64,000 bases of DNA from Rickettsiales bacterium. GTDB taxonomy: Bacteria; Pseudomonadota; Alphaproteobacteria; Rickettsiales; JABSSG01. The translations under genes were made by a program, and so were the position numbers. The stretch is taken from the NCBI GenBank assembly GCA_013214525.1, contig JABSSG010000024.1:44754-108753 (forward strand), given 5' to 3'. Below the pieces are notes generated by a model. That model was given only the letters and a program-made list of their open reading frames with translations. It searched no databases and was not told the origin of the DNA. Shown in pieces: positions 11,871-53,716 of this stretch. How positions within the stretch are numbered: position 1 is the stretch's first letter; every line of letters begins with the position of its first letter.

Positions 11871-12031
11871 TAATATTAACCATACGTAAAAAGTCCGAGA
11901 TTTTAAAAAAGAAAATGTAAATAATATCAAGCTCCTGCCTTCGCAGGGACAAGCTTAAGACATTTTTTAGCGAAGATAATAGTTTCATTTTCTTTTTTAA
12001 AATCTCGGACTTTTTACGTATGATTAGTATA
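11871..12031. repeat. RPE/MITE-like palindromic element, copy A (161 bp)
   Basis: Perfect 37-bp inverted arms: CATACGTAAAAAGTCCGAGATTTTAAAAAAGAAAATG at 11881-11917 is the reverse complement of 11986-12022. Right terminus is ATGATTAGTATA. The centre carries a GC hairpin (CCTGC-CTTC-GCAGG) and the shared module AGACATTTTTTAGCGAAGATA. Confidence 0.9.
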
Positions 12032-12064
12032 TATATTTAATATAACATAAAAATCTTAGATAAC

Positions 12065-12343
12065 ATGAGCCATTTAATTTTAGAACCATTAGAAAAAGCA
12101 ATTACGCAACTAGAGATTGGCATGGCTCTTAAAGAGCAGTCATCAGATAATGAATTACTTCGTGATGGTGTTATTCAAAGATTTGAATATACTATAGATT
12201 TGGCATGGAAATTATTAGCATATTTACGTGATGCTTTTAGTGAATCCAATTTACCATATAAAGTAGATATAGTAGATTGGAACACCCTCTCTGATGATTT
12301 TAAAAAAATTGTGCAACAGGATAAAATCTTGCTCCACTATTAA
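12065..12343 (+). pseudogene. Chimeric remnant of a HEPN/MNT (HI0073/HI0074-type) toxin-antitoxin pair
   Basis: 92-aa ORF. Residues 1-55 (LEKAITQLE...LLRDGVIQRFEYTIDLAWKLL) match the N-terminus of HI0074-family nucleotidyltransferase substrate-binding (HEPN) proteins. The last ~30 aa (LPYKVDIVDWNTLSDDFKKIV) look like the C-terminus of a minimal nucleotidyltransferase. Both parts are far too short to be functional. Confidence 0.6.
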
Positions 12344-12348
12344 GAGTA

Positions 12349-12512
12349 TATACTAATCGTACTTGAAAAATCCTAGTTTTAAAGACAGAAAATGGAATTA
12401 ATATCAAGTTTAAAAATTCGCAAATATCGTTGATATTTAAGACATTTTTAAATGAAGATAGTAGTTTCATTTTCAAACTTTAAAACCGGAGGCTTCAGGT
12501 ATGATTAGTATA
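12349..12512. repeat. RPE/MITE-like palindromic element, copy B (164 bp)
   Basis: Termini are TATACTAATCGTACTTGAAAAA and CTTCAGGTATGATTAGTATA. The interior is near-identical to copies F and J (AATGGAATTAATATCAAGTTTAAAAATTCGCAAATATC.TTGATATTTAAGACATTTTTAAATGAAGATAGTAGTTTCATTTTCAAAC). Confidence 0.9.
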
Positions 12513-12518
12513 CATACA

Positions 12519-13613
12519 TCATTTTTTAGTAAGAGAAAGCATTATGCCCATAGCAATTGCTGTCGCAAGTATTGAAGATCCTCCATAACTTATAAACGGA
12601 AGAGTCATTCCTTTAGTTGGGAATAGATTCAATGTCATGCCCATGTTAAAAACTGCTTGCATACCAATTTGTATTAAAATGCCTGAAATCGCAATTATTT
12701 TAAACTTATTACTGCTATGCAAGATAAGATATAAACCACGCGTAATCAAAAGAGCAAACATTATTATTAAAAAACAACAGGCAATAAAACCCATTTCTTC
12801 ACCCATTACTGCAAATATAAAATCAGCATGCGAATCAGGCACATATTTTTTTATAGCACCATCACCTGACCCCACACCATAAAGGCCTCCTTTTTTAAAA
12901 GCTTCCATTGCCTTCTTTATCTGGTAATTACCAAAATTTTGTGGATCCAGAAATAAATCTATCCTTGTTCTTACATGAGGCAAAAAAACATACGCTAAAG
13001 AAATACCAATTATACCAATTATACCCATCACAAGAATCCATAAAATAGATAACCCACCTATAAATAATTCTCCCACCCAAATTACAGAAAACATTATTGC
13101 CATTCCAAAATCAGGTTGCAAAATTAAAAGTAATACTGTCAGCACATAAAAAAATCCTGAAATTATAAAAACAGGAAAATCAGGATGCTTATATCTAATA
13201 GATATAATCCAAGCTATAAAAACAATAAAAAATGTTTTAGCAAGCTCAGAAGGTTGAATTGAAAACATTCCCAAACTTAACCAACGTCTTGCCCCTTTTA
13301 TTTCATGTCCTTTAACTAATACTAAAACAAGAAGAATTAACGATAAAAAAAAGCCAATTATAGCAAATCTTTTCAAACATTGCTCTGTCATCAAAGTTAT
13401 TGAATACATCAATACAAATGCAACTGATAAATATAGCACATGTTTTTTTATAAAATAAAATGAATCTAATTTTAGTTTCAAAGCGATAGCTGGACTTGCA
13501 GTAACTACCATTATCAAACCTAAAAAAAAAGTTATAGCTATAATAACAACTAAAAACCTATCTAGTGATAATAAAGGAGAGATAAATATTGATTTTAAAC
13601 TATCTTTTATCAT
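12519..13613 (-). CDS. ftsW: Peptidoglycan glycosyltransferase / lipid II flippase FtsW (SEDS family)
   Basis: 364 aa, polytopic. SEDS motifs RRWLSLGMFSIQPSELAK, QPDFGMA, HADFIFAVMGEEMGF and TKGMTLPFISYGGSS. Confidence 0.9.
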   Translation of the reverse strand: MIKDSLKSIFISPLLSLDRFLVVIIAITFFLGLIMVVTASPAIALKLKLDSFYFIKKHVLYLSVAFVLMYSITLMTEQCLKRFAIIGFFLSLILLVLVLVKGHEIKGARRWLSLGMFSIQPSELAKTFFIVFIAWIISIRYKHPDFPVFIISGFFYVLTVLLLILQPDFGMAIMFSVIWVGELFIGGLSILWILVMGIIGIIGISLAYVFLPHVRTRIDLFLDPQNFGNYQIKKAMEAFKKGGLYGVGSGDGAIKKYVPDSHADFIFAVMGEEMGFIACCFLIIMFALLITRGLYLILHSSNKFKIIAISGILIQIGMQAVFNMGMTLNLFPTKGMTLPFISYGGSSILATAIAMGIMLSLTKK

Positions 13614-13633
13614 AAAAAAATCATGATTTGAAT

Positions 13634-13674
13634 CTATGTACTTGAAGATACAATTTTTAAATGTGATGAGTATA
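13634..13674. repeat. Minimal (termini-only) copy of the palindromic element family
   Basis: CTATGTACTTGAAGA...AATGTGATGAGTATA fills the 63-bp ftsW/kinase spacer. The ends resemble the type-2 termini seen at 20161-20177 and 31293-31312. Confidence 0.5.
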
Positions 13675-13676
13675 AA

Positions 13677-15518: not shown

Positions 15519-15522
15519 TAAC

Positions 15523-16509: not shown

Positions 16510-16541
16510 AACATTTCTACTGTTAAATAAAAACTGGAGTT

Positions 16542-16629
16542 TTCAAGCATAATTAGTATTTACTCCTTGTGCTTGAACTTTCCTATTTTCTACCTTAAAA
16601 TTTTGTAATCTTCAAATACGAGAAGTATA
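16542..16629. repeat. Degenerate termini of the palindromic element family (solo right end plus ~73-bp mini copy)
   Basis: TTCAAGCATAATTAGTAT (right-end-like) abuts TATTACTCCTTGTGCTTGAAC...TTCAAATACGAGAAGTATA. The match to the family termini is imperfect. Confidence 0.45.
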
Positions 16630-16714
16630 TTAATACAATTTCGTTAACTTACTAGAGTATTTTCACCTACTTACAAAAAACTTAACTCACGTTAAGTACT
16701 ATGACAGATTAAAA

Positions 16715-17869: not shown

Positions 17870-17894
17870 TTATCTTAAATTTAATTATAACCCT

Positions 17895-17930
17895 ATAAAA
17901 CAATATGCCCCTGCTCTTACAGAGGCATAT
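17895..17930 (-). terminator. Candidate intrinsic attenuator/terminator hairpin between dnaK and dnaJ
   Basis: Arms ATATGCCCCTG (17903-17913) and CAGAGGCATAT (17920-17930) pair at 10 of 11 positions around a 6-nt loop. On the coding (minus) strand the hairpin is followed by TGTTTTAT. Confidence 0.45.
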
Positions 17931-17966
17931 AAAATTTTGTAAATCATAATTTCATACAAATATGAT

Positions 17967-19895: not shown

Positions 19896-19917
19896 AATAA
19901 TTTATCTTATTAATTAA

Positions 19918-29584: not shown

Positions 29585-29680
29585 AAAATTATATTTTTTA
29601 AATTAAAAGCTTTTAATACAGTTCCAACCTGAATCCCTGTAATATATATATAAAATACAAATTAGTCAAAGCCTAGTTTA

Positions 29681-30607: not shown

Positions 30608-30631
30608 TAAAATTTAAAGCAGTTTGAATAT

Positions 30632-31288: not shown

Positions 31289-31292
31289 CTTA

Positions 31293-31456
31293 TATACTCA
31301 TAACACTTGAAGAACCCTAGTTTTAAAGACAGAAAATAGAGATGATATCAAGCTTAAAAACCCAAGAATATTGGTGATATTCGAGGCATTTTTAAGCGAA
31401 GATAGCAGTTTTATTTTCAAACTTAAAAACCGAGAGTCTTCAAGCGTTATGAGTAT
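31293..31456. repeat. Palindromic element copy E (164 bp, type-2 termini)
   Basis: Termini are TATACTCATAACACTTGAAGAACCCTAGTTTTAAAGACAGAAAATAG and AAACCGAGAGTCTTCAAGCGTTATGAGTAT. It occupies almost the whole spacer between the convergent esterase (stop 31288) and xseA (stop 31459). Confidence 0.88.
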
Positions 31457-31458
31457 CC

Positions 31459-32796
31459 CTACTGCGTTTCAGAATCAGACTTTTCAGGTGTGATGGGTGT
31501 AGTGATATTGCCATCATGCATTTCTATCACTACATTTTTAGATTCAATTATCTGTTTAACTGATTTTAGAATTTTATTATTTTTATCACGAACTAAAGCA
31601 AAACCACGTTTTAATACGTTTTTATAGTCATAAGAACAGAGTAATTTTGTAAGAGAGGTTAATTCTCTCTCTTTGCCTTCTACTAACATAGTCAAAACAT
31701 TTACATTTAAAGTCTTTTTAAAAACCTCTAATTGATTAGATAAATTATCTCGATACCTAGAAGACGATTCCATTAACCTAAAGCTAACTTCATCTAGTTT
31801 TTGCACATAATTAGCAATTACTAAAGCTAAATTAGCCATAGTGGCTTTGGTAGATACAAGAGCTGACTTCCTATTATCTAAATAATTTAGAGCAGCAAGC
31901 TCTTGCCTTCGTTTCAAATCATTAATAGCCATCATAAGCTCATTCCTAACAGGAACAGTCATTTCAGCAGCTGCTGTCGGCGTTGGAGCTCGTCTATCTG
32001 CAACATAATCAATCAAAGTAGTATCTGTTTCATGCCCTACTGCTGAAATAATTGGAATTTCAGAAGCAAATGCTGCTCTCACTACAATTTCTTCATTAAA
32101 TGCCCAAAGATCTTCAATTGATCCTCCTCCTCTAGCAACTATTAAAACATCAGGCTTTACAGAATATTTATTAAAGCCATAAATAGCCTCAGCAATCTGC
32201 TTAGCTGCCTGCTCTCCTTGAACTAGCACTGGCCAAAGCAAAATTGGCATCGGAAACCTGTCTTCAATTCTATGAATAATATCTTGTATAACCGCACCAG
32301 TCGGCGAAGTAACTACACCAACTATCTTTGGTAAAAATGGTATTTCTTTTTTATGACTAGAATCAAACAACCCTTCTTGTTGAAATTGCTTCTTTCTTTT
32401 TTCCAGCAATGCCATTAAAGCACCAATACCAGCTGGACTAGAAGAACGCACAACCATTTGATATTTAGATTGACCCGAATACGCCGTAAGCATACCTGAA
32501 CATATCATTTCTAATCCTTCTTGAGGCTTGTGTTTAATTGCACTCCATTGTCCCCTCCAGCAGACAGCTGATAATACAGCACCATTATCTTTTAATGAAA
32601 AATACACATGCCCAGATGGAGCAATTTTTAACCCTGACACTTCACCTCTAACTTTCACATATTCAAAATTATGCTCAATTGACTTTTTTATCAATGCTGA
32701 TATCTCACTTACCGTATACTCAGCTTGAGTGTTGGTGTTTATATTTTGATCGTCATTATTATATGTAGTTTGCATTATTTTTTTTATAGAAACCAT
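31459..32796 (-). CDS. xseA: Exodeoxyribonuclease VII large subunit
   Basis: 445 aa. OB-fold N-terminus (V.GEVSG......GH.YF.LKD), VGVVTSPTGA, ARGGGS.EDLW.FN and PIISAVGHETD. Confidence 0.93.
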   Translation of the reverse strand: MVSIKKIMQTTYNNDDQNINTNTQAEYTVSEISALIKKSIEHNFEYVKVRGEVSGLKIAPSGHVYFSLKDNGAVLSAVCWRGQWSAIKHKPQEGLEMICSGMLTAYSGQSKYQMVVRSSSPAGIGALMALLEKRKKQFQQEGLFDSSHKKEIPFLPKIVGVVTSPTGAVIQDIIHRIEDRFPMPILLWPVLVQGEQAAKQIAEAIYGFNKYSVKPDVLIVARGGGSIEDLWAFNEEIVVRAAFASEIPIISAVGHETDTTLIDYVADRRAPTPTAAAEMTVPVRNELMMAINDLKRRQELAALNYLDNRKSALVSTKATMANLALVIANYVQKLDEVSFRLMESSSRYRDNLSNQLEVFKKTLNVNVLTMLVEGKERELTSLTKLLCSYDYKNVLKRGFALVRDKNNKILKSVKQIIESKNVVIEMHDGNITTPITPEKSDSETQ

Positions 32797-32809
32797 TTGT
32801 TGAGGTTAT

Positions 32810-32995
32810 TATACTAATCGTACTTGAAGAATCCTAATTTTAAAGACAGAAAATGGAATTAATATCAAGTTTAAAAATTCACAAATATCATTGATATTTA
32901 AGACATTTTTAAATGAACATAATAATTTTACTTTCAAACCCCTGTCTTCACATGGGCATGCTTAAAAACCGGAGGTTTCAGGTATAATTAGTATA
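32810..32995. repeat. Palindromic element copy F (186 bp, longest variant)
   Basis: Same termini and central module as copy B, plus a decayed hairpin module (CCCCTGTCTTCACATGGGCATGCTTAAAAACCGGAGG). Confidence 0.9.
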
Positions 32996-33035
32996 ACATA
33001 TCTAATAATTAAATTGCTTATTTTAAATTATTGAA

Positions 33036-33104
33036 TATACTAATCGTACTTGAAGAGTCTGGTTTTTAAGAAAGAAAATGGAGACTTCAGGTATAATTAG
33101 TATA
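33036..33104. repeat. Palindromic element copy G (69-bp minimal variant)
   Basis: TATACTAATCGTACTTGAAGAGTCTGGTTTTTAAGAAAGAAAATGGAGACTTCAGGTATAATTAGTATA has both termini intact with the interior collapsed. Confidence 0.88.
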
Positions 33105-33172
33105 TCATCAGTTACTCCTATAAAAATATACCAATTATACTAAAACTAGTATATACAAAAAATAAAATCTCT

Positions 33173-34576: not shown

Positions 34577-34578
34577 TT

Positions 34579-35811
34579 ATGCCTTCTGTAATCCGCCAAT
34601 ATTTCTCTCTAAATGATCCAATAACCACTCAAGACAAGCAAACTATAAATCTAGCTGCAAAAAAATTACTTAATAACCCTGAAGAGCCATGGATTAAAGA
34701 AATTTTTCAGCCTAAAGTAAACACACAATATTTAGAATCTATTGCAAAAGAATTACTATTGGGGTGTAAACATTTAGTTATAATAGGCACTGGAGCTTCC
34801 AATAATATTCCCAAAACATTATTTTCTCTTACCACATATGATAAAAATCTTCAGATATATTTCCTTGAAGATACAGATGAATTCAAATTTGAAAATGTAA
34901 TATCAAAACTTGATCCCGCTTCAACACGTTTTCTTGTAATTAGCAAATCTGGACGAACTTTAGAGATCCTTACCCTAACTTTACTATGCTTGAAATGGAT
35001 ACAAAAAAAAATTCCAATGATAAGACTAAATAAAATATTTTATTTTGTAACCTCATCTAAAGAAAATAATAATCATCTATTACAAATAGCAAATAAATAT
35101 AAAGCTACAATAATAGAACACCCTTCTTTAAATGGACGCTTTTCATTTTTTAGTTCTGTAGGACTCTTACCTGCTGCAATAGCTGGACTTGATTTAAATT
35201 TAATTTTAAGACATGCATCTTGGTGCATTAATACAATCTTTAAAGAATCTTCATGGATTCTCGACTACGCTACCTACTTCACTACCATGTCTAAAAAATA
35301 TCATAACGCCGTTCTAATGACATATAGTAATATATTTCATAGTATAGCTATTTATTCAAGACAATTAATCTCAGAGAGCTTGGGAAAAAAAGGCATCGGA
35401 ATAAATCCTGTTATTTTTGAAGGAAATATTGATCAGCATAGCCAACTACAATCTTATTTAGATGGATTACCAGATAAATTTTTTACAATATTAATGCCGG
35501 CTGCTTATACCACACGTCATGATCATATAACAATTACTAACACTGAAATTTCAGAACTTACCCACTTAAAAAACAAAACTCTCTTAGATATAAACAAATT
35601 ACAAATAAAATCGGTTATCAATCTTCTCGAAAAAAAAGCTAAGAATCTTAGGATAATTGAAGTCAAGAAATTTAACGAGGTATCCTTAACTGAAATCATT
35701 ATTTGCTTTATAATTGAAACTATTTTATATGCAAAATTAAACAAAATTGATCCATTTACCCAAGAAGCAATTGAAACTATGAAAAATACTGTAACAAAGA
35801 TTGCCATTTAA
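34579..35811 (+). CDS. pgi: Glucose-6-phosphate isomerase-like SIS protein (short bacterial/archaeal PGI type)
   Basis: 410 aa. IIGTGASNN, VISKSGRTLE, GRFSFFSSVGLLPAAIAG, ESLGKKG and DQHSQLQ follow PGI motif order. Starts 2 nt after the NMO stop. Confidence 0.75.
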   Translation: MPSVIRQYFSLNDPITTQDKQTINLAAKKLLNNPEEPWIKEIFQPKVNTQYLESIAKELLLGCKHLVIIGTGASNNIPKTLFSLTTYDKNLQIYFLEDTDEFKFENVISKLDPASTRFLVISKSGRTLEILTLTLLCLKWIQKKIPMIRLNKIFYFVTSSKENNNHLLQIANKYKATIIEHPSLNGRFSFFSSVGLLPAAIAGLDLNLILRHASWCINTIFKESSWILDYATYFTTMSKKYHNAVLMTYSNIFHSIAIYSRQLISESLGKKGIGINPVIFEGNIDQHSQLQSYLDGLPDKFFTILMPAAYTTRHDHITITNTEISELTHLKNKTLLDINKLQIKSVINLLEKKAKNLRIIEVKKFNEVSLTEIIICFIIETILYAKLNKIDPFTQEAIETMKNTVTKIAI

Positions 35812-35823
35812 TCACTTATCACC

Positions 35824-36717: not shown

Positions 36718-36736
36718 CAGGTTAGGGTTTTTAATC

Positions 36737-36899
36737 TATACTCATCGTGCTTAAAAAGCCCTAGATTTTAAGAAAGAAAATTAAGTTAGTATCAAGTATA
36801 AAAATCCGAGAATATTGAACATATTCAAGGCATTTTTATACGAAGATAATAATTAAATTTTCAAAATTAAAAATAGGGATCTTCAAGTACGATGAGTAT
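36737..36899. repeat. Palindromic element copy H (163 bp, type-2 termini)
   Basis: Termini are TATACTCATCGTGCTTAAAAAGCCCTAGATTTTAAGAAAGAAAAT and AAATAGGGATCTTCAAGTACGATGAGTAT. Confidence 0.85.
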
Positions 36900-36912
36900 C
36901 GTATTGAAGCTC

Positions 36913-37497
36913 CTAAATTCGTTTAGATATATTTGAAGATTTATGATAGCCTTTATAAGGAGGAGGTGTAGGGCGAGTAACAACCTTCTTTGAGCTTACT
37001 CGTTTCACATAATTTTCTATTTCATCTTTCAATTTTTGAGGCACTTGTCTATTTTGAGAAAGATAAGCTTGTCTTTTTTTATATAACTCAATCAAAGCAA
37101 CATCTGCAAATCTACGCTTTAAATTCTTTTGTTCTTGTTTATTTAATTGATCTGTCACAGATATAAACTCCTTTGAATATTTATCAAAATTAGCAGCTAA
37201 ATTTTTACCTAACATCTCCATAACCATTTCCTTATCGCTACTTCCTTTCATTTTTTTCAATAAAATTATTATAGTTTTTATTTCATTGTAAATTGCTAAT
37301 TTAGCGTCTTCACTCATATTTTCAAAATTTAGAAACTCCTCTTCTCTACCTGCAAATAATTTTGCTATATCTTCAAAAAGAGCTACCATATCTTCTTCTA
37401 TAAATTCAGACTCATGTTGCATAGATAATTCATCAAGAATATTACTAACTTTATTTTTAATAAGATTCTTCTTTTCTGGTTTAAAATTATTTTGCAT
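36913..37497 (-). CDS. Hypothetical helical protein with basic, proline-containing C-terminal tail
   Basis: 194 aa, acidic N-half, ends KRVSSKKVVTRPTPPPYKGYHKSSNISKRI. No family recognised. Confidence 0.5.
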   Translation of the reverse strand: MQNNFKPEKKNLIKNKVSNILDELSMQHESEFIEEDMVALFEDIAKLFAGREEEFLNFENMSEDAKLAIYNEIKTIIILLKKMKGSSDKEMVMEMLGKNLAANFDKYSKEFISVTDQLNKQEQKNLKRRFADVALIELYKKRQAYLSQNRQVPQKLKDEIENYVKRVSSKKVVTRPTPPPYKGYHKSSNISKRI

Positions 37498-37569
37498 ATA
37501 ACTCTTCTATATTAGTAACTTTAATTATAAGCAAATAAAGTTAATCATTTATTAAACGCTCTGAGGAAA

Positions 37570-39369: not shown

Positions 39370-39643
39370 TCAACTAAAATATTTTTTAATTCATAACTGA
39401 GTTTTAAAGTACCACGAGTATAATTACCTCTTATGTTACTTATAGCTCAAGAAAATATTTTATACAATCGAATTCAAAGAATGTGCAACACATTAATCTT
39501 AATAGTTTTTTTATTTATTTATTTTTCGAACTTACAATTGAGATGTTATGCCAAGTTTGCTACCTTAGGAATGTATTGTCTTTCTAACCCTTTAGATAAA
39601 AGACAAGTATTTATAAACTTAATAAATCATATAAATACATAAA

Positions 39644-40354
39644 ATGGCTTTCTTAAATTTTTTTAAAAAAAAGGAAGAAAATACTTCTACTGATTTGATA
39701 CAAAATACAAAAGGATGGTATGAAGACAGATATCAAACATTAGTTGTGCAAAGAAATCTATTTTTTCTAATAGCCTCTCTATGCATAATATTTATGAGTG
39801 TATCAGTAGTTTTATTAAGTGGCATAATCACAAAGAAAAAAATAGAGCCTATGGTGATAGAAGTCGAAGAATCAAGCGGTATAACAAGCATAGTAAACCC
39901 AAACTTAAAAAAAGATTGGTCGGCTAGTAAAGTAATAAATCAATATTTTATTACAACATATCTACGTAACAGAGAAACTTATAATATAGCGTCCTATCTA
40001 TATAATTACAATACAGTCGTACGGCTTTTATCATCATTTAAAGTATATAATCAATTTAAAAAAATTATAAATGACCCAACTCAAAGTTCTATTGCTAAAT
40101 ATGGATCCAGAAATTCTACTAAGCTAGAAATTAGATCAATCTTATTTCTTAAAGAGTCACCAGGTGGAGGAGGACAAACAGCTCAGATAAGATTTACTAT
40201 CATAGAAAATGAAGGTCAAAAAAGAAAAATAAACAAAATAGCATCAATTGTGTGGGATTATGTAGAAATGAACTTAAATTTTGAAGATACGATGGTCAAT
40301 CCATTAGGTTTTCAAGTACAATTTTATACAGTATCAAATGATGTCAATGCTTAA
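39644..40354 (+). CDS. virB8: Type IV secretion system protein VirB8
   Basis: 236 aa. N-terminal cytoplasmic stretch, one TM (LFFLIASLCIIFMSVSVVLL) and a periplasmic NTF2-like part (YLRNRETYN...). First gene of the B8-B9-B10-B11-D4 operon. Confidence 0.85.
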   Translation: MAFLNFFKKKEENTSTDLIQNTKGWYEDRYQTLVVQRNLFFLIASLCIIFMSVSVVLLSGIITKKKIEPMVIEVEESSGITSIVNPNLKKDWSASKVINQYFITTYLRNRETYNIASYLYNYNTVVRLLSSFKVYNQFKKIINDPTQSSIAKYGSRNSTKLEIRSILFLKESPGGGGQTAQIRFTIIENEGQKRKINKIASIVWDYVEMNLNFEDTMVNPLGFQVQFYTVSNDVNA

Positions 40355-40754
40355 AAAATTTTTGCTATATTTCTTATGTTTTCTCTTCTCTCACTATGCA
40401 CTAGCTGAGATACCTATAAATACTGATAAACGTATAAAAACATATGTTTATCATCCAAGTGACGTATACCTAGTAACAATTAGCCCAGGTTTTCAAACTA
40501 GTATTGAATTTGCACACGGAGAGCAAATTCAAACTATATCTGTTGGAGATTCTTTTTCATGGCTATTAAACCCGATGGGAAATAGATTATTCATAAAACC
40601 ACTTGAAAACAATGTACGCACAAACATGACCATAATTACAAATCTTAGAACTTATCAATTTGATATCTTATCTAGTTCTGAAAAAGAATATATGACAGAT
40701 ATAGCTTACGTTATAAGATTTTATTATCCAAGCAACAATACAAACCGGTATTGA
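40338..40754 (+). CDS. virB9: Type IV secretion system protein VirB9, short form (N-terminal domain only)
   Basis: 138 aa. Signal peptide, then DKRIKTYVYHPSDVYLVTISPGFQTSIEF..GE.I..ISVGDS.SW......NRLFIKP......TNMTIITNLRTYQFDI, which matches the VirB9/CagX N-domain. There is no C-terminal domain. Overlaps virB8 by 17 nt. Confidence 0.85.
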   Translation: MMSMLKKFLLYFLCFLFSHYALAEIPINTDKRIKTYVYHPSDVYLVTISPGFQTSIEFAHGEQIQTISVGDSFSWLLNPMGNRLFIKPLENNVRTNMTIITNLRTYQFDILSSSEKEYMTDIAYVIRFYYPSNNTNRY

Positions 40755-40755
40755 T

Positions 40756-42105
40756 ATGGCAAAAGATTCAAGTGAAAATCTATCACAAAATCCTCCTCAA
40801 GAAGAAGATATAGAATCAGCAGATGCTGATGTAGCACCAACAGGTACTAATGAAAGTGAAGATATTAATACAGAAAACAATAATTCTACATCTGCTGATA
40901 AAGAAGCTGATATTGATAAGCTTGAACACCCTCAAACACAAAAGTCAGCACAAAACAATCTTTCTTTAATTATCATAGCTCTAATTGTTGCAGTTGGAGC
41001 AGTAATTGCCTATTTCTGGATCACTGGCAAAAAAGATAAAACACCTACTCAAGATAAAGTACCATTTACAGAAAAAAAACCTGATACTGCTAGTAAACTA
41101 CCAGCACCTTTATTACAAAAATCCTCTCGAGTACCAAAAAATATAGTTGCAGTAACACCACCCAAACCCAAAACGCTTCCTAAGACTATCTCTAAGTCTC
41201 CACCTGCTCCTGCTGTACCAAAATTATTAGCACCAGATAAAATTACACACCCTAAAGACATTAATACTGATGAAAAAACACCATTTAGCAATAATAATAG
41301 ACGTAATACTAAAATAAAATCTTCGATTATGCTAAAAAACAGCAGTGATACTAATCAAACAAAAACTAATAAAAACAACATTGATTCAAGTAGTGCAGAC
41401 GGAGTTTTCAATCCTGAGGTTATAAAAGCTAAAACTGCAAAGCTAACTAAAATTGGCAATATGTCTACTACCATCACTCAAGGAAAAATGTTGGATGCTG
41501 TGTTAGAAACACCCATTAACACACTATACCCAGGACCAATCCGAGGCCTAATAAGTAGAGATGTTTTCTCAGAAAGAGGCAATAATATATTAATTCCAAA
41601 AGGATCAAAGATTATAGGTGCTCTTAAAGGAGGTTATACTGCAGGACAATCTCGTGTCGCTGTAAGCTGGACTAGGATAATTTTACCTAGCGGATATGAT
41701 ATAGCAATAACTGATGCACCAGGCGTTGGAAAACTAGGCATGATGGGAGTTGAAGGAGTTGTAAACAGACAATTTATGGAAACTATAGGCAGTGCCGCAC
41801 TACTCAGCCTCATAAATATAGCCACAGCAAATATAACAGAAGATGCATTTGATATAGATTCAAGAACGCAAACCTCTAGTACTAGTTCTAGTGGCACTAC
41901 TACCACTACAAATACTATAACTCCAACACAACAAGCTGCTGAAGATGCTGTTAATAATTTAAGCAGTATTACAAAAGACTGGTTAAGTAAAAACTTTCTT
42001 GCAACCCCATATATAGTAATAAATCAAGGAACTAGATTAAAAGTATTCGTAAATCAAGATATCAAATTTCCTAAAAATATCAATTCATCAATACTCGTAA
42101 AATGA
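40756..42105 (+). CDS. virB10: Type IV secretion system protein VirB10
   Basis: 449 aa. Acidic N-terminus, TM (LSLIIIALIVAVGAVIAYFWI), proline-rich linker (PPKPKTLPKTISKSPPAPAVPK) and a TrbI-type C-domain (GKMLDAVLETPINT..PGPIRG.ISRDV). Confidence 0.9.
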   Translation: MAKDSSENLSQNPPQEEDIESADADVAPTGTNESEDINTENNNSTSADKEADIDKLEHPQTQKSAQNNLSLIIIALIVAVGAVIAYFWITGKKDKTPTQDKVPFTEKKPDTASKLPAPLLQKSSRVPKNIVAVTPPKPKTLPKTISKSPPAPAVPKLLAPDKITHPKDINTDEKTPFSNNNRRNTKIKSSIMLKNSSDTNQTKTNKNNIDSSSADGVFNPEVIKAKTAKLTKIGNMSTTITQGKMLDAVLETPINTLYPGPIRGLISRDVFSERGNNILIPKGSKIIGALKGGYTAGQSRVAVSWTRIILPSGYDIAITDAPGVGKLGMMGVEGVVNRQFMETIGSAALLSLINIATANITEDAFDIDSRTQTSSTSSSGTTTTTNTITPTQQAAEDAVNNLSSITKDWLSKNFLATPYIVINQGTRLKVFVNQDIKFPKNINSSILVK

Positions 42106-43094
42106 CGAATGCAGCATTAGAGACTTTTTTACTACCTTTCCATAAGTTATTTGCTGAAAGTGATGTTTCAGAAATTTCTGTTAACTCCCCAGGAGAAGCA
42201 TGGGTAGAAGCACATGGAGAAATGAGGGTAGAAAAAATTCCTGAACTTGATCTCAATCATTTAACAAATTTAGGCAAACTTATCGCACAATCTACAGATC
42301 AAATGATCAGTGAAGAAAAACCTTTACTCTCTGCAACACTCCCAAACGGTTACCGTATTCAAGTTGTTTTTCCTCCAGCAGCAGAAATGGGCAAAGTGGT
42401 TTTATCAATCCGAAAAGGAGCCGTTACTAAACTTAATTTAGAAAGCTATGAAAAAATGGGAGCTTTTGCTAATACTACAAATGTTACAAAAAAAAATCCA
42501 ATTGATGATATTTTATTGAAGCATTTACAGAACGGAGAAATAAAACTATTTATCCGCACAGCTGTTAAATTTAAAAAAAATTTATTAATTAGTGGTGGAA
42601 CTTCCAGTGGTAAAACTACTTTTGCTAATGCCGCACTACTAGAGATCCCTAGTGATGAGAGGCTTATCACTGTAGAGGATGCTAGAGAAGTTCAGTTACC
42701 TAATAATAAAAATAGAGTACATTTACTAGCATCAAGAGGAGATCAAGGGTTAGCTCAAGTTACAACTCAGGACTTGATAGAAGCATGTTTGCGACTTAGA
42801 CCAGATAGAATTATAGTAGGAGAATTAAGAGGTGCAGAAGCTTTCGGTTTTTTAAGAGCTGTTAACACTGGCCATCCTGGTTCAATCACTACTATCCATG
42901 CTGATTCACCTGCAATGTCCTTCGAACAATTAAAATTAATGGTAATGCAAGCTGGCTTAGGTATGCCACCTGATGAGGTTAAATCATATGTAAGCTCAGT
43001 AATTGATATCGTAATACAACTAAAAAGAGGAGACAAAGGAGTTAGGTATGTGTCTGAAATATATTTTAAAGAAGATCCAAACAGAAAAAAATAG
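42102..43094 (+). CDS. virB11: Type IV secretion ATPase VirB11
   Basis: 330 aa. Walker A ISGGTSSGKTTF, RPDRIIVGELRG and TGHPGSITTIHA. ATGA overlap with virB10. Confidence 0.95.
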   Translation: MTNAALETFLLPFHKLFAESDVSEISVNSPGEAWVEAHGEMRVEKIPELDLNHLTNLGKLIAQSTDQMISEEKPLLSATLPNGYRIQVVFPPAAEMGKVVLSIRKGAVTKLNLESYEKMGAFANTTNVTKKNPIDDILLKHLQNGEIKLFIRTAVKFKKNLLISGGTSSGKTTFANAALLEIPSDERLITVEDAREVQLPNNKNRVHLLASRGDQGLAQVTTQDLIEACLRLRPDRIIVGELRGAEAFGFLRAVNTGHPGSITTIHADSPAMSFEQLKLMVMQAGLGMPPDEVKSYVSSVIDIVIQLKRGDKGVRYVSEIYFKEDPNRKK

Positions 43095-43106
43095 TTACTT
43101 ATCTAC

Positions 43107-44921
43107 ATGAAAATTAAAAATATAACTTCCAGATTATTAATTATCTTAACAGGTTTTGCTTCTGCTATCATTTTATCATCTATATTATTTATTTATCTAA
43201 CCTACGGTCCACAATACATACAGTTAACAAATTTTGGTTCAGAATACTTAGCTCGCAACTACGAGATGTTTGTATTCTTATGGCAACAAATTATATATTA
43301 CATTAACTGGATGATCCAAAATAAAACTTTAGTTTCTTTTAGTGCCAACTCTTATTTAGCTGCAAAAGTCTTTGGAGTACCAAGTTTAGTATTTTCAATA
43401 TTTGGAATAATTCTTATTGCAAAATATGAAAATCTAATGGAATGGACACCTTTTAAGAAAAAAGAGAAAATTTATGGAGATGCAAAATGGGCTTCCCAAG
43501 AAGATGTAAAACGAGCAAAATTACGAGCAAAAACAGGTTTGCTTTTAGGAAAAGATAACAAAGGAAATTATGTTTCTAGTGGATATCAGCATGCCTTACT
43601 TTTTGCACCTACCGGTTCTGGAAAAGGTGTAGGTTTTGTTATCCCTAATTTATTATTTTGGGAAGACTCTTGTTTAGTGCATGATATTAAACTTGAAAAT
43701 TTCGAATTAACCAGCGGATGGCGAACAAAAGGCTTAGGACAACAATGCTTTTTATGGAATCCTACCGATCCAGATGGAAAAACACATTGCTATAATCCCA
43801 TGGATTGGATTAGTACAAAACCTGGACAAATGGTGGATGACGTACAAAAAATGGCCAATCTACTTTTACAAAAAGCAACAGACTTCTGGGAAAGTGAAGC
43901 AAGAAGCTTATTTGTAGGAATAGCTTTATATCTATGTGCTGTGCCTGAAAAAATAAAATCTTTTGGTGAAGTTGTTAGAACAATAAGAAGCGATGACGTC
44001 GCTTATAATTTAGCAGTTGTTTTAGACACAGTAGGCAAACAAATTCATCCAGTAGCTTATATGAACCTTGCTGCATTTTTACAAAAAGCAGATAAAGAAA
44101 GATCTGGTGTGATATCTACTTTAAGCTCCGCATTAGAATTATGGGCAAACCCATTAGTGGATGCAGCAACAGCTAAAAGTGACTTCAATATGCAAGAATT
44201 GAAAAAGAAAAGAATGACTATTTATGTTGGTCTTACTCCAGATAACATAACAAGATTAAAAAAATTGATGCAGGTGTTTTATCAACAAGCAACAGATTTC
44301 CTAACAAGAAAAATTCCTGATGATAAAGAAGAACCATATGGTGTTTTATTTATTATGGATGAGTTCCCTACCTTAGGAAAAATGGAAGCCTTTAAATCTG
44401 GTATCGCATATTTCAGAGGATATAAAGTAAGACTATTTCTAATAGTTCAAGATACACAGCAACTAAAAGGTATTTACGAAGAATCTGGCATGAATTCTTT
44501 CTTATCAAACTCTTATTATCGAATAACTTTTGCTGCTAATAATATGGACACTGCTAATTTAATTTCCAAACTTTGTGGAAATAAAACTGTAGAATCTATA
44601 TCTGAAACCAGACCTAAATTTTTAGATTTTAGTCCTGGAGGAAAATCACAAAATGTTTCTAAAACTTCAAGAGCATTATTATTACCTCAGGAAGTATTGA
44701 CACTTTCAAGAGATGAACAAATCGTATTGATTGAATCATTCCCACCTATCAAATCTAAAAAAATAAAATATTATCAAGATAGTTTTTTCACTGAAAAACT
44801 ATTGCCACATATTGAAGTACCTCGCCAAAAACCATATAACCCTGATGACCTTGCAGAACCTGCAGACGAAAACTCTGAAGGCACTGAAGAAACAGAAGAA
44901 GAACTAGAAACAGAAGAATAA
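43107..44921 (+). CDS. virD4: Type IV coupling protein VirD4
   Basis: 604 aa. Two N-terminal TM helices, Walker A FAPTGSGKGVG, Walker B-like LFIMDEFPTLG and an acidic C-terminal tail. Confidence 0.95.
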   Translation: MKIKNITSRLLIILTGFASAIILSSILFIYLTYGPQYIQLTNFGSEYLARNYEMFVFLWQQIIYYINWMIQNKTLVSFSANSYLAAKVFGVPSLVFSIFGIILIAKYENLMEWTPFKKKEKIYGDAKWASQEDVKRAKLRAKTGLLLGKDNKGNYVSSGYQHALLFAPTGSGKGVGFVIPNLLFWEDSCLVHDIKLENFELTSGWRTKGLGQQCFLWNPTDPDGKTHCYNPMDWISTKPGQMVDDVQKMANLLLQKATDFWESEARSLFVGIALYLCAVPEKIKSFGEVVRTIRSDDVAYNLAVVLDTVGKQIHPVAYMNLAAFLQKADKERSGVISTLSSALELWANPLVDAATAKSDFNMQELKKKRMTIYVGLTPDNITRLKKLMQVFYQQATDFLTRKIPDDKEEPYGVLFIMDEFPTLGKMEAFKSGIAYFRGYKVRLFLIVQDTQQLKGIYEESGMNSFLSNSYYRITFAANNMDTANLISKLCGNKTVESISETRPKFLDFSPGGKSQNVSKTSRALLLPQEVLTLSRDEQIVLIESFPPIKSKKIKYYQDSFFTEKLLPHIEVPRQKPYNPDDLAEPADENSEGTEETEEELETEE

Positions 44922-44998
44922 ATTAAATCACCACTACTCTATTTATAATTGCAAACAATTGCCCTTTTTGTTATAAAAAACTACTTACAAATAATCTT

Positions 44999-45955: not shown

Positions 45956-45963
45956 GCCTTGAT

Positions 45964-46239
45964 TTATTTGTTCATTTTTTCTCGTTCTCTTCTCTGTTCT
46001 TCTTCACCTACTACTTTAAAATGAGTAGGTTCACGATTTTTAAATCTCATTTTTGAAAAACTAAAACCAAAATAAGGAGCAATTAATCTTGCTAAAAGTC
46101 CTATAATAATAAATATCAAAAGAAATTTTAGTAATAAGAACGCTATAAAAATAAACAATCCAACTACTAATACAAACTTAATTATCTCACTAAGTGAATA
46201 TCGCTTTAAAAAATTTATTATATTATTAAATATTCTCAT
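45964..46239 (-). CDS. Small hypothetical membrane protein with charged C-terminus
   Basis: 91 aa, two hydrophobic helices, tail EEEQRREREKMNK. No homology recognised. Confidence 0.35.
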   Translation of the reverse strand: MRIFNNIINFLKRYSLSEIIKFVLVVGLFIFIAFLLLKFLLIFIIIGLLARLIAPYFGFSFSKMRFKNREPTHFKVVGEEEQRREREKMNK

Positions 46240-46356
46240 GCTTTATGTATCTTAATCATTGCTAATACTATAATAACAATCACTTATATGCGAGAAAAAT
46301 TAGCAGTAGATTATTAAAATTTTCATGCTACTTTTAGTGGAAATCTAAAAAAATAT

Positions 46357-48819
46357 ATGGGAGATCTTTTAACACAAAGCTTAGTACTTGCTGTCTTGCT
46401 TTTATTTTTAGTAATTGGGTTTTTATACAAACAAAGACCTAAAACTATTACAGAATACGCGTTAGGAAGTAAAAATATTAATACAGCAACTTTAACTGCA
46501 ACTATGGTAGCAACATGTATAGGTGGTGGAAGCCTGATAGGTGCTTCATCTTCATTATATCAATATGGAATATGGATGCTTTTAGCCTTAATTATTTTGC
46601 CACTTAAAAACTGCATTACAGCATTAGTAATATTGCCTCGATGGTCAAAATATTATGGATGCTCTTCCATAGCAGAAGTAATGGAACGCATGTATGGAAA
46701 ATATGTAAGAATTGTAGTCGGCATTGCTGCATTTATATTTTGTATTGGATCACTAGGAGCACAAATTAAATCATTACATTGGGTAATGGAACATGTATTT
46801 AAAGAAAATTCATTTATTGTAACAATAATTGCTTTATTTATTATTTTAGCATATGCCAGCATTGGTGGAGTTTCTTCAGTTATTAAAACTGATGTTATGC
46901 AATGGGCTATCCTTATAATTATTATCCCAGCAATAGCTTATTACTTGATTGATATGTCTGGTGGAATTACTACCATAGTAACAAACTTACCTAAAAATAA
47001 ACTTAGTCTTTCCTCTCAAGGAAAAGATTTTGCATTAACTTCATTTATATTATGGCACGCAATTTCATCTCTTAACCCACTTATTATTCACAGATTTTTA
47101 GTTGGTAGAAATACAAAAAAAAATCAAATCACAATGTATTTGCTTGCGATTACCAGCTTAATTAATCTAATTTTTATTGCTTGCATAGCATTTATTGCTG
47201 TTGCAAAATTCCCTAATATTGCCCCAAAAGAAACGATATTTGCGGTTATACAGGGGTTTACCAATACTAAATACGTAATGACTGCTTTTGTTATTGCACT
47301 GATTGCCGCAATTACCTCTACTGCTGATTCTGTAGTTAATACTGGATCTATCATTTTAATTAATGATATTTCAACTCAAGAAATCACCGAAAAACAAAAA
47401 ATTAAATTATTACAAATCTCAACTATTATTTTGGGAATCGCATCTATAATCATTGCTTTTGCATTCTCGGATATTTTAGAGATATTATGGTTTTTTGGAC
47501 AATATTACTCAATTATTGTAGCTATACCATTAATTGCAGGACTTTTTTTAAAAGAGTTACGCAAAGAAGCATTTTGGTCAAGTATCTCTGCTGGTTTAGT
47601 AGTGTCTACTGTATTACATCTTATAAATCCTAATTTAGGTCATACTGCATTTGTAATTGCTGTTATTGTCAGCCTATGTGTTTATTTTATTACATTCTTT
47701 ATTGTTAGAGACAACAAATTGTCTCAACAAAATTTTTCTTTAGCTAAAATAGCTACAGCAATAAACAAACAAGTGTCTTTTAAAACAAATCTCCTCCCTT
47801 ATATAACCCTAGCTTCATATTTTTATACTACAATTATTAAAATAGAATATGGATCTGAACCAATAATAGCAATTGATACTGTATTAGCTTTAGGCATTTT
47901 AGGGTTTTGTTTATTTTTTGAAGATTCGGTATCCAAGAAATATAAAGGCTTTTTTATTTTAAGCATCTTGTGGTATTGCTTTGCTTTCTTCCCCATATAT
48001 TTCTTCTTAACTAAACCAATGATAATTTTTGTAATAATCAATCTAATTTTATCATTGATAACATTAGCATGGCTAATTAATTGGCATATATTTATTACAT
48101 TTTTACTATCAGGCACTATTATTGCTATTTCTACATTTTGTATATTACACAATGAAATCGTAACTTTAAAAATTGCCAAAATAATATATTTAGGATTATT
48201 TATTAGCTGTATTGGAATAACAGCGTATATATTTGCCAAAAAGGGAGAAAGTATAAGTCAAATAAATTCACCACGTAAAATATTAAGAAAATTTACAAAG
48301 TCACTAACTGCAGGTATAGAATATCAAACTATTTTACTTAAGGGAAATAAACCAATTGAAATTTCACTTGAAGACTTTAAAAACAATGTAACCAAATATT
48401 TTTATAGATTGCTTATTCAAAGAAATGTGAAATTAAAATTCCAAAGCAACCATAAAGTTTTTAATACAATACTACCTCTAGGAAACTTTTATAAAATAAT
48501 ATATAGCACCATTTTTAATATTTTATACTTTATCGAAAATGACAAAATTTTAGTTAAATTTTACTGTAATAAGAATAGTATTTCTAAGATAGAAATTTGG
48601 TGCAATCAGTATGAAATGCAAACCGCACTTAAAAATCCTCAACATGGTAAGATTAAATATTACAAGGAAATTCTTCAATGGAGAGATATACCAAAATTTC
48701 TTGGTACCGAAAAAATAAAACTTCAAATGAATACTGACAAACTGATAATGCATTTCCAATCACCCATAGAAAATAATTTCAAAGGTTCTTCTATCTCTGA
48801 AGGAAGGAAAGTTATCTAA
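46357..48819 (+). CDS. SSS-domain membrane protein with second TM block and degenerate kinase-like C-terminus (putative pseudokinase sensor)
   Basis: 820 aa. Same architecture as 56027..58783. In the C-terminal ~190 aa I find no H-box His and no DxGxG or GxGxG boxes. Only an N-box-like remnant (IIYSTIFNILYFIEND) aligns with VIDNLLENAITYS. Confidence 0.8.
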   Translation: MGDLLTQSLVLAVLLLFLVIGFLYKQRPKTITEYALGSKNINTATLTATMVATCIGGGSLIGASSSLYQYGIWMLLALIILPLKNCITALVILPRWSKYYGCSSIAEVMERMYGKYVRIVVGIAAFIFCIGSLGAQIKSLHWVMEHVFKENSFIVTIIALFIILAYASIGGVSSVIKTDVMQWAILIIIIPAIAYYLIDMSGGITTIVTNLPKNKLSLSSQGKDFALTSFILWHAISSLNPLIIHRFLVGRNTKKNQITMYLLAITSLINLIFIACIAFIAVAKFPNIAPKETIFAVIQGFTNTKYVMTAFVIALIAAITSTADSVVNTGSIILINDISTQEITEKQKIKLLQISTIILGIASIIIAFAFSDILEILWFFGQYYSIIVAIPLIAGLFLKELRKEAFWSSISAGLVVSTVLHLINPNLGHTAFVIAVIVSLCVYFITFFIVRDNKLSQQNFSLAKIATAINKQVSFKTNLLPYITLASYFYTTIIKIEYGSEPIIAIDTVLALGILGFCLFFEDSVSKKYKGFFILSILWYCFAFFPIYFFLTKPMIIFVIINLILSLITLAWLINWHIFITFLLSGTIIAISTFCILHNEIVTLKIAKIIYLGLFISCIGITAYIFAKKGESISQINSPRKILRKFTKSLTAGIEYQTILLKGNKPIEISLEDFKNNVTKYFYRLLIQRNVKLKFQSNHKVFNTILPLGNFYKIIYSTIFNILYFIENDKILVKFYCNKNSISKIEIWCNQYEMQTALKNPQHGKIKYYKEILQWRDIPKFLGTEKIKLQMNTDKLIMHFQSPIENNFKGSSISEGRKVI

Positions 48820-48836
48820 AGAACTAGTAAAATCAC

Positions 48837-50252: not shown

Positions 50253-50646
50253 TAAAAGTTTCTATAAGTGCTGTTGCTATTGCATTTTCCTTATCATCAC
50301 TAATAGACAAATGCAAGGAATATTCCGTTTTAAATAATTTCTTAATAAAAAGATCTAGTTTATTACTTAAATGATAGTACGGTTTTCCTCTTTTGTCATT
50401 CTTAATTGCTATATCACATATTATAACTTCTTTTGCAAAACCCGTACCAATAGCCTTAACTAACGCCTCCTTAGCTGCAAATCTCTTTGCTAAATATTGA
50501 ATAATATAATCTTCTGATCTCATATTTTTAATTTCTTCGATCTCAGAAGACGATAATATCTTTAATACAAACTTATCTTTATGATGAAAATACAGTTTTT
50601 TTATTCTATCAACTTTAACTAAATCTATTCCTATTCCTAAAATCAT
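50236..50646 (-). CDS. acpS: Holo-[acyl-carrier-protein] synthase
   Basis: 136 aa. ILGIGIDLVKVDRI, FAAKEALVKA and LSISDD. Overlaps murC by 17 nt. Confidence 0.9.
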   Translation of the reverse strand: MILGIGIDLVKVDRIKKLYFHHKDKFVLKILSSSEIEEIKNMRSEDYIIQYLAKRFAAKEALVKAIGTGFAKEVIICDIAIKNDKRGKPYYHLSNKLDLFIKKLFKTEYSLHLSISDDKENAIATALIETFNDSFK

Positions 50647-50651
50647 AATTT

Positions 50652-52859: not shown

Positions 52860-52891
52860 TTATTTCATATGGTTTATAGCCTACCGAAAGC

Positions 52892-52978
52892 TACACTAAT
52901 CATACTTGAAAATCTAAGATTTTAAAAAAGAAAATAATATCAAATTTAAAAATAGGTATTTTAGGTATGATTATTATA
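52892..52978. repeat. Palindromic element copy I (87-bp short variant)
   Basis: TACACTAATCATACTTGAAAATCTAAGATTTTAAAAAAGAAAATAATATCAAATTTAAAAATAGGTATTTTAGGTATGATTATTATA. Sits between rpoZ and spoT. Confidence 0.8.
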
Positions 52979-52996
52979 TACTTATTACAATTGAAA

Positions 52997-53434
52997 CTAG
53001 TTTTTCTTGCTGTCATCTTCTTTAGAAGTATCTTCTTCTACAGAATTTACTTCTAAACCACTAATATCAGAAGATTGATCTTCTTCATCAACCGATATAA
53101 ATTCATTTTCAATAAGTTCATCAGAAAGAGAACTAGATTCTTTTAATTCATCTTCTGATGCATTTTCTTCTAATTGTTTCTTATCATCTTCTATAACATC
53201 ATCACTTGGCAAACATAATTGCAAACTTTGAATATAAGATCTTTTTAAAGTAGGTATATCAACATGTTCACTTGCAATCTCCCTAAGTGCTATAACAGCA
53301 TTTTTATCATTTCGTTTATCTACTGGAGTCGCTGCCCCCTTTGATATTTGCTTTGCTCTATAACTTGCAAGAATTGATAATTCAAATTTATTATTTAACT
53401 TTTTAAAACAATCCTCTACTGTAGTTCTAGCCAT
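52997..53434 (-). CDS. rpoZ: DNA-directed RNA polymerase subunit omega with long acidic C-terminal extension
   Basis: 145 aa. MARTTVEDC....NKFEL...AS.RAKQI is the RpoZ core. The C-terminal ~70 aa are D/E/S-rich. Confidence 0.9.
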   Translation of the reverse strand: MARTTVEDCFKKLNNKFELSILASYRAKQISKGAATPVDKRNDKNAVIALREIASEHVDIPTLKRSYIQSLQLCLPSDDVIEDDKKQLEENASEDELKESSSLSDELIENEFISVDEEDQSSDISGLEVNSVEEDTSKEDDSKKN

Positions 53435-53526
53435 AATTTTCTTAGATTAATTAAACATTTATCTGATAAATATATATGATTTATATAGATATTAAAAGGA
53501 TTTATTGCCAATATCTAATATTTTAC

Positions 53527-53716
53527 TATACTAATCGTACTTGAAAAGCCCGAGATTTTAAAAAAGAAAATGGAAGTAATATCAAGCTTAAAAATTCGCA
53601 AATATCATTGATATTTAAGACATTTTTTAGCGAAGATAGTAGTTTCATTTTCAAATTTAAAAATCGGTATTTTCATGTATGATTAGTATATAGAGTTTCC
53701 AAGTATGATTAGTATA
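53527..53716. repeat. Palindromic element copy J (164 bp, 53527-53690) plus a duplicated right terminus (53698-53716)
   Basis: Full copy runs TATACTAATCGTACTTGAAAAGCCCGAGATTTTAAAAAAGAAAATGGAAG...TTTCATGTATGATTAGTATA. Seven bp later a second CAAGTATGATTAGTATA occurs, and its ATG is the hemW start codon. Confidence 0.9.

Follow-up and report, generated by a model that had tools for sequence, protein, structure and literature searches.

What are the short palindromic sequences that recur between the genes of a marine Rickettsiales bacterium, and how did they come to be there? The question was raised by a 64-kb stretch of DNA (contig JABSSG010000024.1, positions 44,754 to 108,753; hereafter, the window, with positions counted from its first letter), for which an earlier note, made from the letters alone, had described a dense family of such elements. 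[quoted passage not shown] The family is a new example of a well-known sort of bacterial repeat, not a new type, with the RPE families compared by description only. The core of the earlier description (dense, modular, palindromic, non-coding, mostly intergenic and MITE- or RPE-like) is backed by the statistics, the folding, the covariation and the relatives. The scaffold, 307 kb long, was taken from a marine metagenome bin (ENA ERZ23489196; sample SAMN09765703; run SRR7648327), and the DNA examined consisted of the window and 18 kb of flanking sequence on the same scaffold (82 kb in total). The name tag of the bin points to the abyssal sinking-particle series of Station ALOHA (PMC6575173) as the probable, unconfirmed origin of the sample.

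Direct reading of the coordinates showed that a copy or a fragment of a single repeat is present at each of the 14 loci listed in the earlier note. The terminus pattern TATACTMATNNNACTTGAA was matched 24 times with two or fewer mismatches, against 0.38 expected from dinucleotide-preserving shuffles (0 of 100 shuffles reached 24), and 39 times with three or fewer mismatches, against 4.8 expected. With a profile of five full copies, nhmmer gave 21 window matches at E < 0.01 and none in 30 dinucleotide-preserving shuffles; the remaining copies were recovered at E-values from 1e-33 to about 1e-2. With a covariance model made from five copies, scores of 25-93 bits were obtained for copies outside the training set (A, F, E, I, L2 and J). 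Taken together, the profile and covariance searches reached E-values as low as 1e-45. Thus, the copies stay significant against a shuffled AT-rich background, on which the earlier note had let its claim depend. The number of element loci is at least 20 in the 64 kb, and three partial copies were found in the 18-kb flanking scaffold. The copies and remnants in the window are as follows.

1028-1056, minus strand: degenerate mini-palindrome of about 29 bp with a family terminus.
6395-6413 and 6586-6604, plus strand: two degenerate terminus-like remnants with 3 mismatches each, weaker than the rest, in a 471-bp spacer.
11871-12033, plus strand: copy A, 163 bp, with 37-bp perfect arms and a degenerate left terminus.
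12349-12512, plus strand: copy B, 164 bp, full length, with AAT-type termini; 5 nt past the stop of an open reading frame (ORF) for a HEPN fragment and 6 nt before the ftsW stop.
13634-13674, minus strand: copy K, a 41-bp mini-copy that consists of just the two termini, left and right, in the spacer from the stop of the histidine kinase gene to the ftsW start.
16527-16631, minus strand: locus L, a solo terminus (16527-16560) adjoining a mini-copy of about 71 bp (16559-16629), between a methyltransferase gene and dnaJ.
19916-19961, minus strand: copy M, a half copy (one arm) of the A-like subtype, 21 nt upstream of the dnaK start.
About 19990-20177, minus strand: copy J, D-type, immediately downstream of htrA; its far end is degenerate, and its GC hairpin is at 20034-20049.
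21795-21830, plus strand: degenerate terminus remnant (TATACCAATCATACCGGAAAAGTCCGA...) in the htrA/Host_attach spacer.
22472-22494, plus strand: solo left terminus N, CAT type, directly adjoining copy F.
22496-22612, plus strand: copy F, 117 bp, with the left arm, the GC hairpin (22557-22572) and the right terminus in this order; a deletion derivative of the D type.
27433-27451, minus strand: degenerate terminus-like remnant with 3 mismatches, in the pth/symporter spacer.
28824-28868, plus strand: copy O, a degenerate mini-copy of about 45 bp, overlapping the end of the symporter gene 27478-28842.
31293-31457, plus strand: copy C, 165 bp, full length, CAT-type, filling the convergent spacer between a carboxylesterase gene and xseA.
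31462-31501, minus strand: degenerate arm remnant that encodes the XseA C-terminal tail.
32810-32995, plus strand: copy D, 186 bp, a full copy with a 22-bp right-arm insertion that bears the GC hairpin (32940-32955).
33036-33104, plus strand: copy E, a 69-bp deletion derivative.
33127-33154, plus strand: degenerate mini-palindrome or terminus remnant.
36737-36900, plus strand: copy G, 164 bp, full length, CAT-type, in the convergent spacer past an EamA transporter gene.
39404-39422, minus strand: solo terminus P, in the divergent PBP1/virB8 spacer.
52892-52980, plus strand: copy I, an 89-bp deletion derivative overlapped by a solo terminus (52977-52995), between spoT and rpoZ.
53527-53690, plus strand: copy H, 164 bp, full length, upstream of rpoZ.
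53691-53716, plus strand: solo right terminus Q, overlapping the start (53705) of a hemW-like radical SAM gene.

The earlier list is therefore correct in its loci and incomplete in its range (11871-53716), since the degenerate termini at 1028-1056, 6395-6413 and 6586-6604 lie outside it and further loci lie within it (21795-21830, 27433-27451, 31462-31501, 33127-33154, 39404-39422, 52977-52995 and 53691-53716). The presence of these degenerate termini and mini-palindromes in other spacers indicates a family of greater age and wider spread than would appear from the 14 loci. The full copies share 71-87% identity with copy B, which was used as the reference, and thus the family is not young.

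In its master form, the element measures about 164 bp (163-165 bp in A, B, C, G and H) and is a near-perfect palindrome over its whole length, with inverted arms of up to 56 nt in the full copies. On folding, each full copy gives one hairpin of about 70 pairs (minimum free energy, -45 to -70 kcal/mol; z-scores, -6 to -13), and this folding is possible on either strand; a stable hairpin is also what is expected of RPEs, which are palindromic repeats of about 100-150 bp. The most conserved part of the element is its termini (about 20 nt; TATACT[A/C]AT...ACTTGAA), of which 19-20 nt pair as terminal inverted repeats in 10 of the 10 aligned copies. Two subtypes of the terminus, TATACTAAT...ATTAGTATA and TATACTCAT...ATGAGTAT, had been recognised before; both were found, and they are set apart by a compensating change from A:T to C:G on both arms. 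The copies span 41-188 bp, and the reported size series was reproduced (copies of 41-117 bp and of 163-186 bp were read). The short forms K (41 bp), O (about 45 bp), E (69 bp), I (89 bp) and F (117 bp) are internal deletions in which both termini are retained; solo termini and half copies, which had also been reported, are present (half copy, 19916-19961; solo terminus, 22472-22494). The earlier note had explained the series by two internal modules, a GC hairpin and an AT-rich centre. The former holds as a module in four copies, and the latter is not separate: it is the apical part of the continuous palindrome. The 16-nt GC hairpin CCCTGCCTTCGCAGGG occurs four times, exclusively within elements (11933-11948, 20034-20049, 22557-22572 and 32940-32955). 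It is found at one right-arm junction in D, F and J, and in A it replaces the apex, with a direct AAGCT repeat on its flanks; at least two independent placements are thereby indicated, and the GC hairpin may be a nested mini-element. With its length below about 500 bp, its terminal inverted repeats, its many dispersed copies and no capacity to encode a transposase, the element has the properties of a MITE; its membership is incomplete because no target-site duplication is visible.

The complementarity of the arms was evaluated by counting covariation over the 70-pair structure on the ten-copy alignment. Standard pairs are formed by 87.9% of the alignment cells, against about 42% when the partners were slid by 1-3 columns, and two-sided changes occur at 19 of the 70 pairs, against 10.6 +/- 2.1 in shuffles (0 of 500 shuffles reached 19). 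The mismatches of the G:U and A:C types are roughly balanced (37:25), and thus neither strand is singled out as a functional RNA. In copy A, the arms are perfect over 37 bp (11881-11917 pairs with 11986-12022), exactly as the earlier note had stated. The recent mobility that the note had proposed for this copy, with strong structural constraint as the other option, was not borne out: its left terminus is degenerate, it is among the most diverged full copies and one of its arms seems to have been copied. The left arm agrees with the family at 32 of 35 positions (to copy H) and the right arm at 28 of 37; the left arm is thus the nearer to the family, which fits arm-onto-arm copying. Judged from these alignments, copy A fits the overwriting of one arm from the other by quasi-palindrome template switching, not a recent insertion. 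Quasi-palindrome template switching is a known mechanism in bacteria.

The placement of the elements was analysed with the main ORFs, by which 8.3% of the window is intergenic. The element DNA totals 1,774 bp, corresponding to 2.8% of the window and 33% of the intergenic DNA, and elements are found in 13 of the 30 spacers of 60 bp or more. Merely 31 of the 1,774 element bases fall inside ORFs (the XseA-tail remnant is outside that tally), which agrees with the intergenic placement reported before. Convergent spacers hold B, C, G and O, co-directional spacers hold K, L, M/J, N/F and I, and divergent spacers hold A, D/E, P and H/Q. The orientation relative to transcription is mixed (four sense and two to three antisense in the co-directional spacers), and the copies often start 1-6 nt from a stop codon. 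No insertion inside a gene was found in the window, just three overlaps with extreme gene ends. The last four codons of the symporter gene 27478-28842, with its stop, come from copy O (from its part 28824-28842); the hemW-like radical SAM gene (53705) takes its ATG and the three codons after it from solo terminus Q; and the degenerate arm 31462-31501 encodes a 13-residue C-terminal tail of XseA, which is missing from a 75%-identical homologue. No reading frame is stop-free across the copies, and each of the frames is interrupted by stops in most copies; thus the element does not code for protein in the way that RPEs do. Solo termini repeatedly adjoin other copies (N and F, I and 52977, H and Q, L1 and L2, C and the xseA tail), which suggests insertion into or beside older copies, or a very limited permissive space.

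Copies A and B, in the same orientation, flank a toxin-gene fragment of 92 aa (HEPN/nucleotidyltransferase-substrate-binding, HI0074-like; 12065-12343), and the unit of A, the toxin fragment and B separates ftsW from murG. This unit looks like a composite-transposon-like insertion with a decayed toxin-antitoxin remnant. Five small ORFs have no Pfam match (22642-24349, 36913-37497 and 45964-46239), and two of them flank element copies.

The lineage-specific part of the reading was examined in relatives. GenBank protein labels give the host as "MAG: ... [Rickettsiales bacterium]", where MAG denotes a metagenome-assembled genome. The closest homologues of its XseA are merely 69-75% identical; the best named Rickettsiaceae homologue is 55% identical, and the host is neither of the genus Rickettsia nor a close member of the Rickettsiaceae. 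A syntenic 21-kb contig of a relative (L089; XseA identity, 75%) holds no copy by the hidden Markov model (HMM) or the covariance model and no comparable inverted repeats. In another relative, the xseA/esterase spacer is 28 bp, against 170 bp in the window, 165 of which are copy C. With the same two models, no family members were found in relatives L089, L090, L091, L095, L096 and L097, including a Rickettsiaceae MAG locus. One weak covariance-model match in L096 (12169-12264) was rejected, as it is an ordinary bidirectional terminator. The syntenic relative without copies, the spacer of 28 bp against 170 bp and the element-encoded XseA tail support, at the level of compared sequences, a putative lineage-specific gain.

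Searches of databases were performed with the elements and the window. No match was obtained with blastn against plasmid and phage collections, nor with blastn (word size 11) against 5,426 complete E. coli genomes. Rfam 15 at gathering thresholds gave only one tRNA in the window, and the comparison with Rfam that the earlier note had proposed thus yielded no family near threshold; at permissive E-values, plant MIR hairpins appeared (best, 48.9 bits against a threshold of 211) and were rejected as generic long-hairpin similarity. Promoter and terminator consensus scans showed no enrichment, such scans being uninformative in DNA of 30% GC, and no match to an IHF site was seen by eye. As the earlier note had also reported, no transposase was found among the window ORFs checked (with Pfam, NCBIfam and the Pfam tags of the scaffold; the small ORFs 1066-1674 and 63530-63847 were outside the scan).

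Several observations weigh against the selfish, lineage-specific family. The nearest relatives, at 69-75% protein identity, are too distant for empty sites to be seen at the nucleotide level. The exact terminus, searched as a degenerate 19-mer, gave 19 isolated single matches in 185,579 GTDB species representatives and 67 in JGI metagenomes; these matches are attributed to chance, because none extends into an element under nhmmer. No target-site duplication of 2-5 nt lies outside the TATACT termini in the seven well-bounded copies, and no autonomous partner insertion sequence (IS) with the same termini was found in the 82 kb. The full copies are 13-29% diverged from copy B, and present mobility is unsupported. 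The covariation counts include changes inherited within subfamilies and overstate the independent events, with the direction still clear. As to the TA target-site duplication that the earlier note had suggested looking for, copies C and G share ...GAGTATC, and the outer TA thus seems to be part of the element itself; a TA hidden within the palindromic terminus may still be a target duplication.

The elements would have been dispersed by an enzyme acting in trans, a recombinase or a transposase, with recognition of the termini or of the hairpin, and the gene for this enzyme may be outside the 82 kb or may have been lost. The few permissive places of a gene-dense genome, namely, spacers and extreme gene ends, are where the copies lie. 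The copies would later have decayed by internal deletion across the palindrome, and their arms may have been kept complementary by selection for the hairpin or by arm-to-arm template switching (quasi-palindrome correction), the latter probably seen in copy A. For the host, the side effects would be genes with new start or stop codons or with new C-terminal tails and, probably, transcripts with hairpins; secondary effects on transcripts are plausible. Given that neither a target duplication nor a partner IS was found, the enzyme may be a DDE transposase whose TA target is cryptic, or else one that is specific for a hairpin or a sequence and leaves no duplication.

The second of these options concerns the mobilisation step only. 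An enzyme of the REP/RAYT type, the IS200/IS605-type HUH or the IS110 type, in place of a DDE enzyme acting on terminal inverted repeats, is in our opinion unlikely, and several features speak for it: no target duplication of any length is found in the seven well-bounded copies, the hairpin spans the whole element and not the ends alone, the complementarity of the arms is kept, and the GC hairpin lies at two independent internal positions, as if it were handled as a hairpin unit. However, a unit of about 164 bp far exceeds the REPs (20-40 nt), the flanks have no conserved GTAG-like tetranucleotide or 5' target tetranucleotide, no Y1/HUH or DEDD gene is found among the window ORFs checked, and the balance of GU to AC mismatches (37:25) leaves no strand clearly active. 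In a broader form, the elements would be self-symmetrising hairpins, moved or copied as single-stranded hairpins via a HUH/RAYT-like or other unrecognised enzyme without target duplication, with arm-to-arm templating, with the GC hairpin as a nested mobile unit comparable to the GC clusters of mitochondria, and with the hairpins co-opted as the main punctuation of transcripts; we regard this combination as improbable.

It is equally improbable, in our estimate, that the host has selected the hairpins chiefly as RNA elements (terminators, sites of RNase III or RNase E, or transcript stabilisers), which were multiplied for their usefulness and not as selfish DNA. The compensatory changes preserve the pairing of the stem, copies B, C, G and O lie a few nt from stop codons in four convergent spacers, and the palindromic repeats ERIC and Correia are reported to affect mRNA stability and termination (PMC10969869). 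A primary function of this kind is made less likely by the mixed orientation relative to transcription, by hairpins that are not followed by a U-tract, by the many truncated, solo or degenerate copies and by the syntenic relative that does without them; moreover, terminator and promoter matches are not enriched, copies are also found in divergent promoter spacers (A, D/E, H and P), and no Rfam family is near threshold.

The resemblance to RPEs that had been noted earlier holds as an analogy only. That the family is, by descent, a diverged relative of the published RPE-1 to RPE-10 is very doubtful. The host belongs to the Rickettsiales and has a type IV secretion system (T4SS) of the rvh type, the size, hairpin form and abundance are similar to those of RPEs, and one RPE family was reported outside the Rickettsiaceae (PMC1779305). 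However, no frame is open across the copies and no insertion is found inside a gene, which is the hallmark of RPEs (PMC10969869); the matches of the exact terminus in GTDB species representatives were all single and isolated, none extending into the element under nhmmer; blastn against plasmids was empty; and the family is absent from the closer relatives and from the Rickettsiaceae MAG locus. Finally, an assembly or binning artefact has next to no chance of being the explanation: the sequence is a MAG scaffold, and an independent unitig-style assembly of the same run seems, by coordinate arithmetic, to break inside elements, but the copies differ by 13-29% and have unique flanks inside a conserved gene order, the same loci are found in independent Logan contigs, and compensatory changes of the arms are not produced by artefacts. 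The break in question is seen in Logan contig SRR7648327_26760 (7,465 bp), which starts inside copy M and, by that arithmetic, has its end in copy B; assemblies therefore appear to break at the repeats.

With regard to the other genes of the scaffold, virB8, virB9 (CagX), virB10, virB11 and virD4 are arranged in the window as in the rvh-type T4SS (39644-44921), and virB3, virB4 and two virB6/TrbL paralogues lie just past the window end (flanking piece L093 1959-7482), with an element remnant between the two virB6 paralogues (L093 6171-6229). Genes related to glycolysis encode phosphoglucose isomerase (34579-35811), a GlpX-type fructose-1,6-bisphosphatase (8718-9692) and phosphofructokinase (flanking piece L092 19175-20419), and SpoT/RelA is full-length (735 aa). 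The glycolytic genes and the full-length SpoT/RelA are unusual for the Rickettsiaceae and suggest a less reduced, deep-branching marine lineage of the Rickettsiales. Three sodium:solute symporter paralogues are present (27478-28842, 46357-48819 and 56027-58783), one of them fused to a histidine kinase, and a 205-nt stretch of 74% identity is common to the sequences at 27749 and 46628; a transporter-fused sensor kinase is reported to be amplified in Orientia (PMC2575882). Between dnaK and dnaJ, a canonical hairpin like an intrinsic terminator (17903-17930, minus strand; 12 pairs and a T-run) was found, which is unrelated to the repeat family.

The preferred reading of the repeats as a selfish, MITE- or RPE-like family means that an expansion of RPE-like palindromic repeats has taken place in a marine Rickettsiales lineage as well; between these repeats and RPEs, no sequence relationship is detectable. 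About one-third of the non-coding DNA consists of the repeats, and at least three gene ends were rewritten by them, with a start codon in one gene, a stop codon in another and a C-terminal tail in a third. They are of use for the annotation of MAGs, as the repeats seem to break assemblies, for the question of how reduced genomes tolerate or recycle selfish DNA, and as a naturally occurring, compact set of data on compensatory evolution within a long DNA/RNA hairpin. Worth recording are the density, the remodelling of three gene ends, the nesting of the GC hairpin and the clean signal of compensation; a specialist in bacterial repeats would find none of them surprising.

Compared with the known systems, the marine family shares with RPE-1 to RPE-10 the host order, the form (palindromic repeats of 100-190 bp, interspersed and folding into a long hairpin), the abundance, the lineage-specific proliferation, the lack of a transposase of its own and the occasional residues given to proteins, which in the marine family are at gene ends only. 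It differs from them in the host genus and in having neither a conserved open frame nor in-frame insertions, and no sequence relationship was detected, as judged by description and the terminus search. The REP/RAYT system differs in the length of its palindromes (20-40 nt, against a marine unit of about 164 bp), and no RAYT-like ORF was found among the window ORFs checked. The Correia elements of Neisseria (CREE/NEMIS) and IS630-mobilised MITEs such as RUP are similar in length (about 100-160 bp, with shorter internal-deletion variants), in terminal inverted repeats beginning with TATA, in intergenic positions near genes and in possible transcript hairpins. However, in the Correia elements the terminal inverted repeats are 26 bp long, the interior is not palindromic and a TA target duplication is clear, whereas the marine family is palindromic throughout and no duplication is separable from its terminus; there is no sequence similarity. 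ERIC/YPAL of enterobacteria are likewise imperfect palindromes over their whole length (about 127-170 bp), intergenic, and with size variants made by internal deletion or insertion, and the stem is reported to be maintained in ERIC too. ERIC differs in its phylum-level host lineage, in being typically transcribed with orientation-dependent effects, and in that blastn gave no match to the marine family in complete E. coli genomes. In Orientia tsutsugamushi, a member of the Rickettsiales, short repeats are also massively amplified (the MITEs mISOt1/2/4, and SROt2). The mISOt elements differ in that their cognate IS elements were identified, and they are reported not to be conserved in sequenced Rickettsia genomes; SROt2 has terminal inverted repeats and no known partner IS, as in the marine family (PMC2575882). 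The best-supported placement of the marine family is in a general kind to which RPEs, ERIC/YPAL, Correia elements and other bacterial MITEs also belong (PMC10969869; PMC1779305; PMC2575882).

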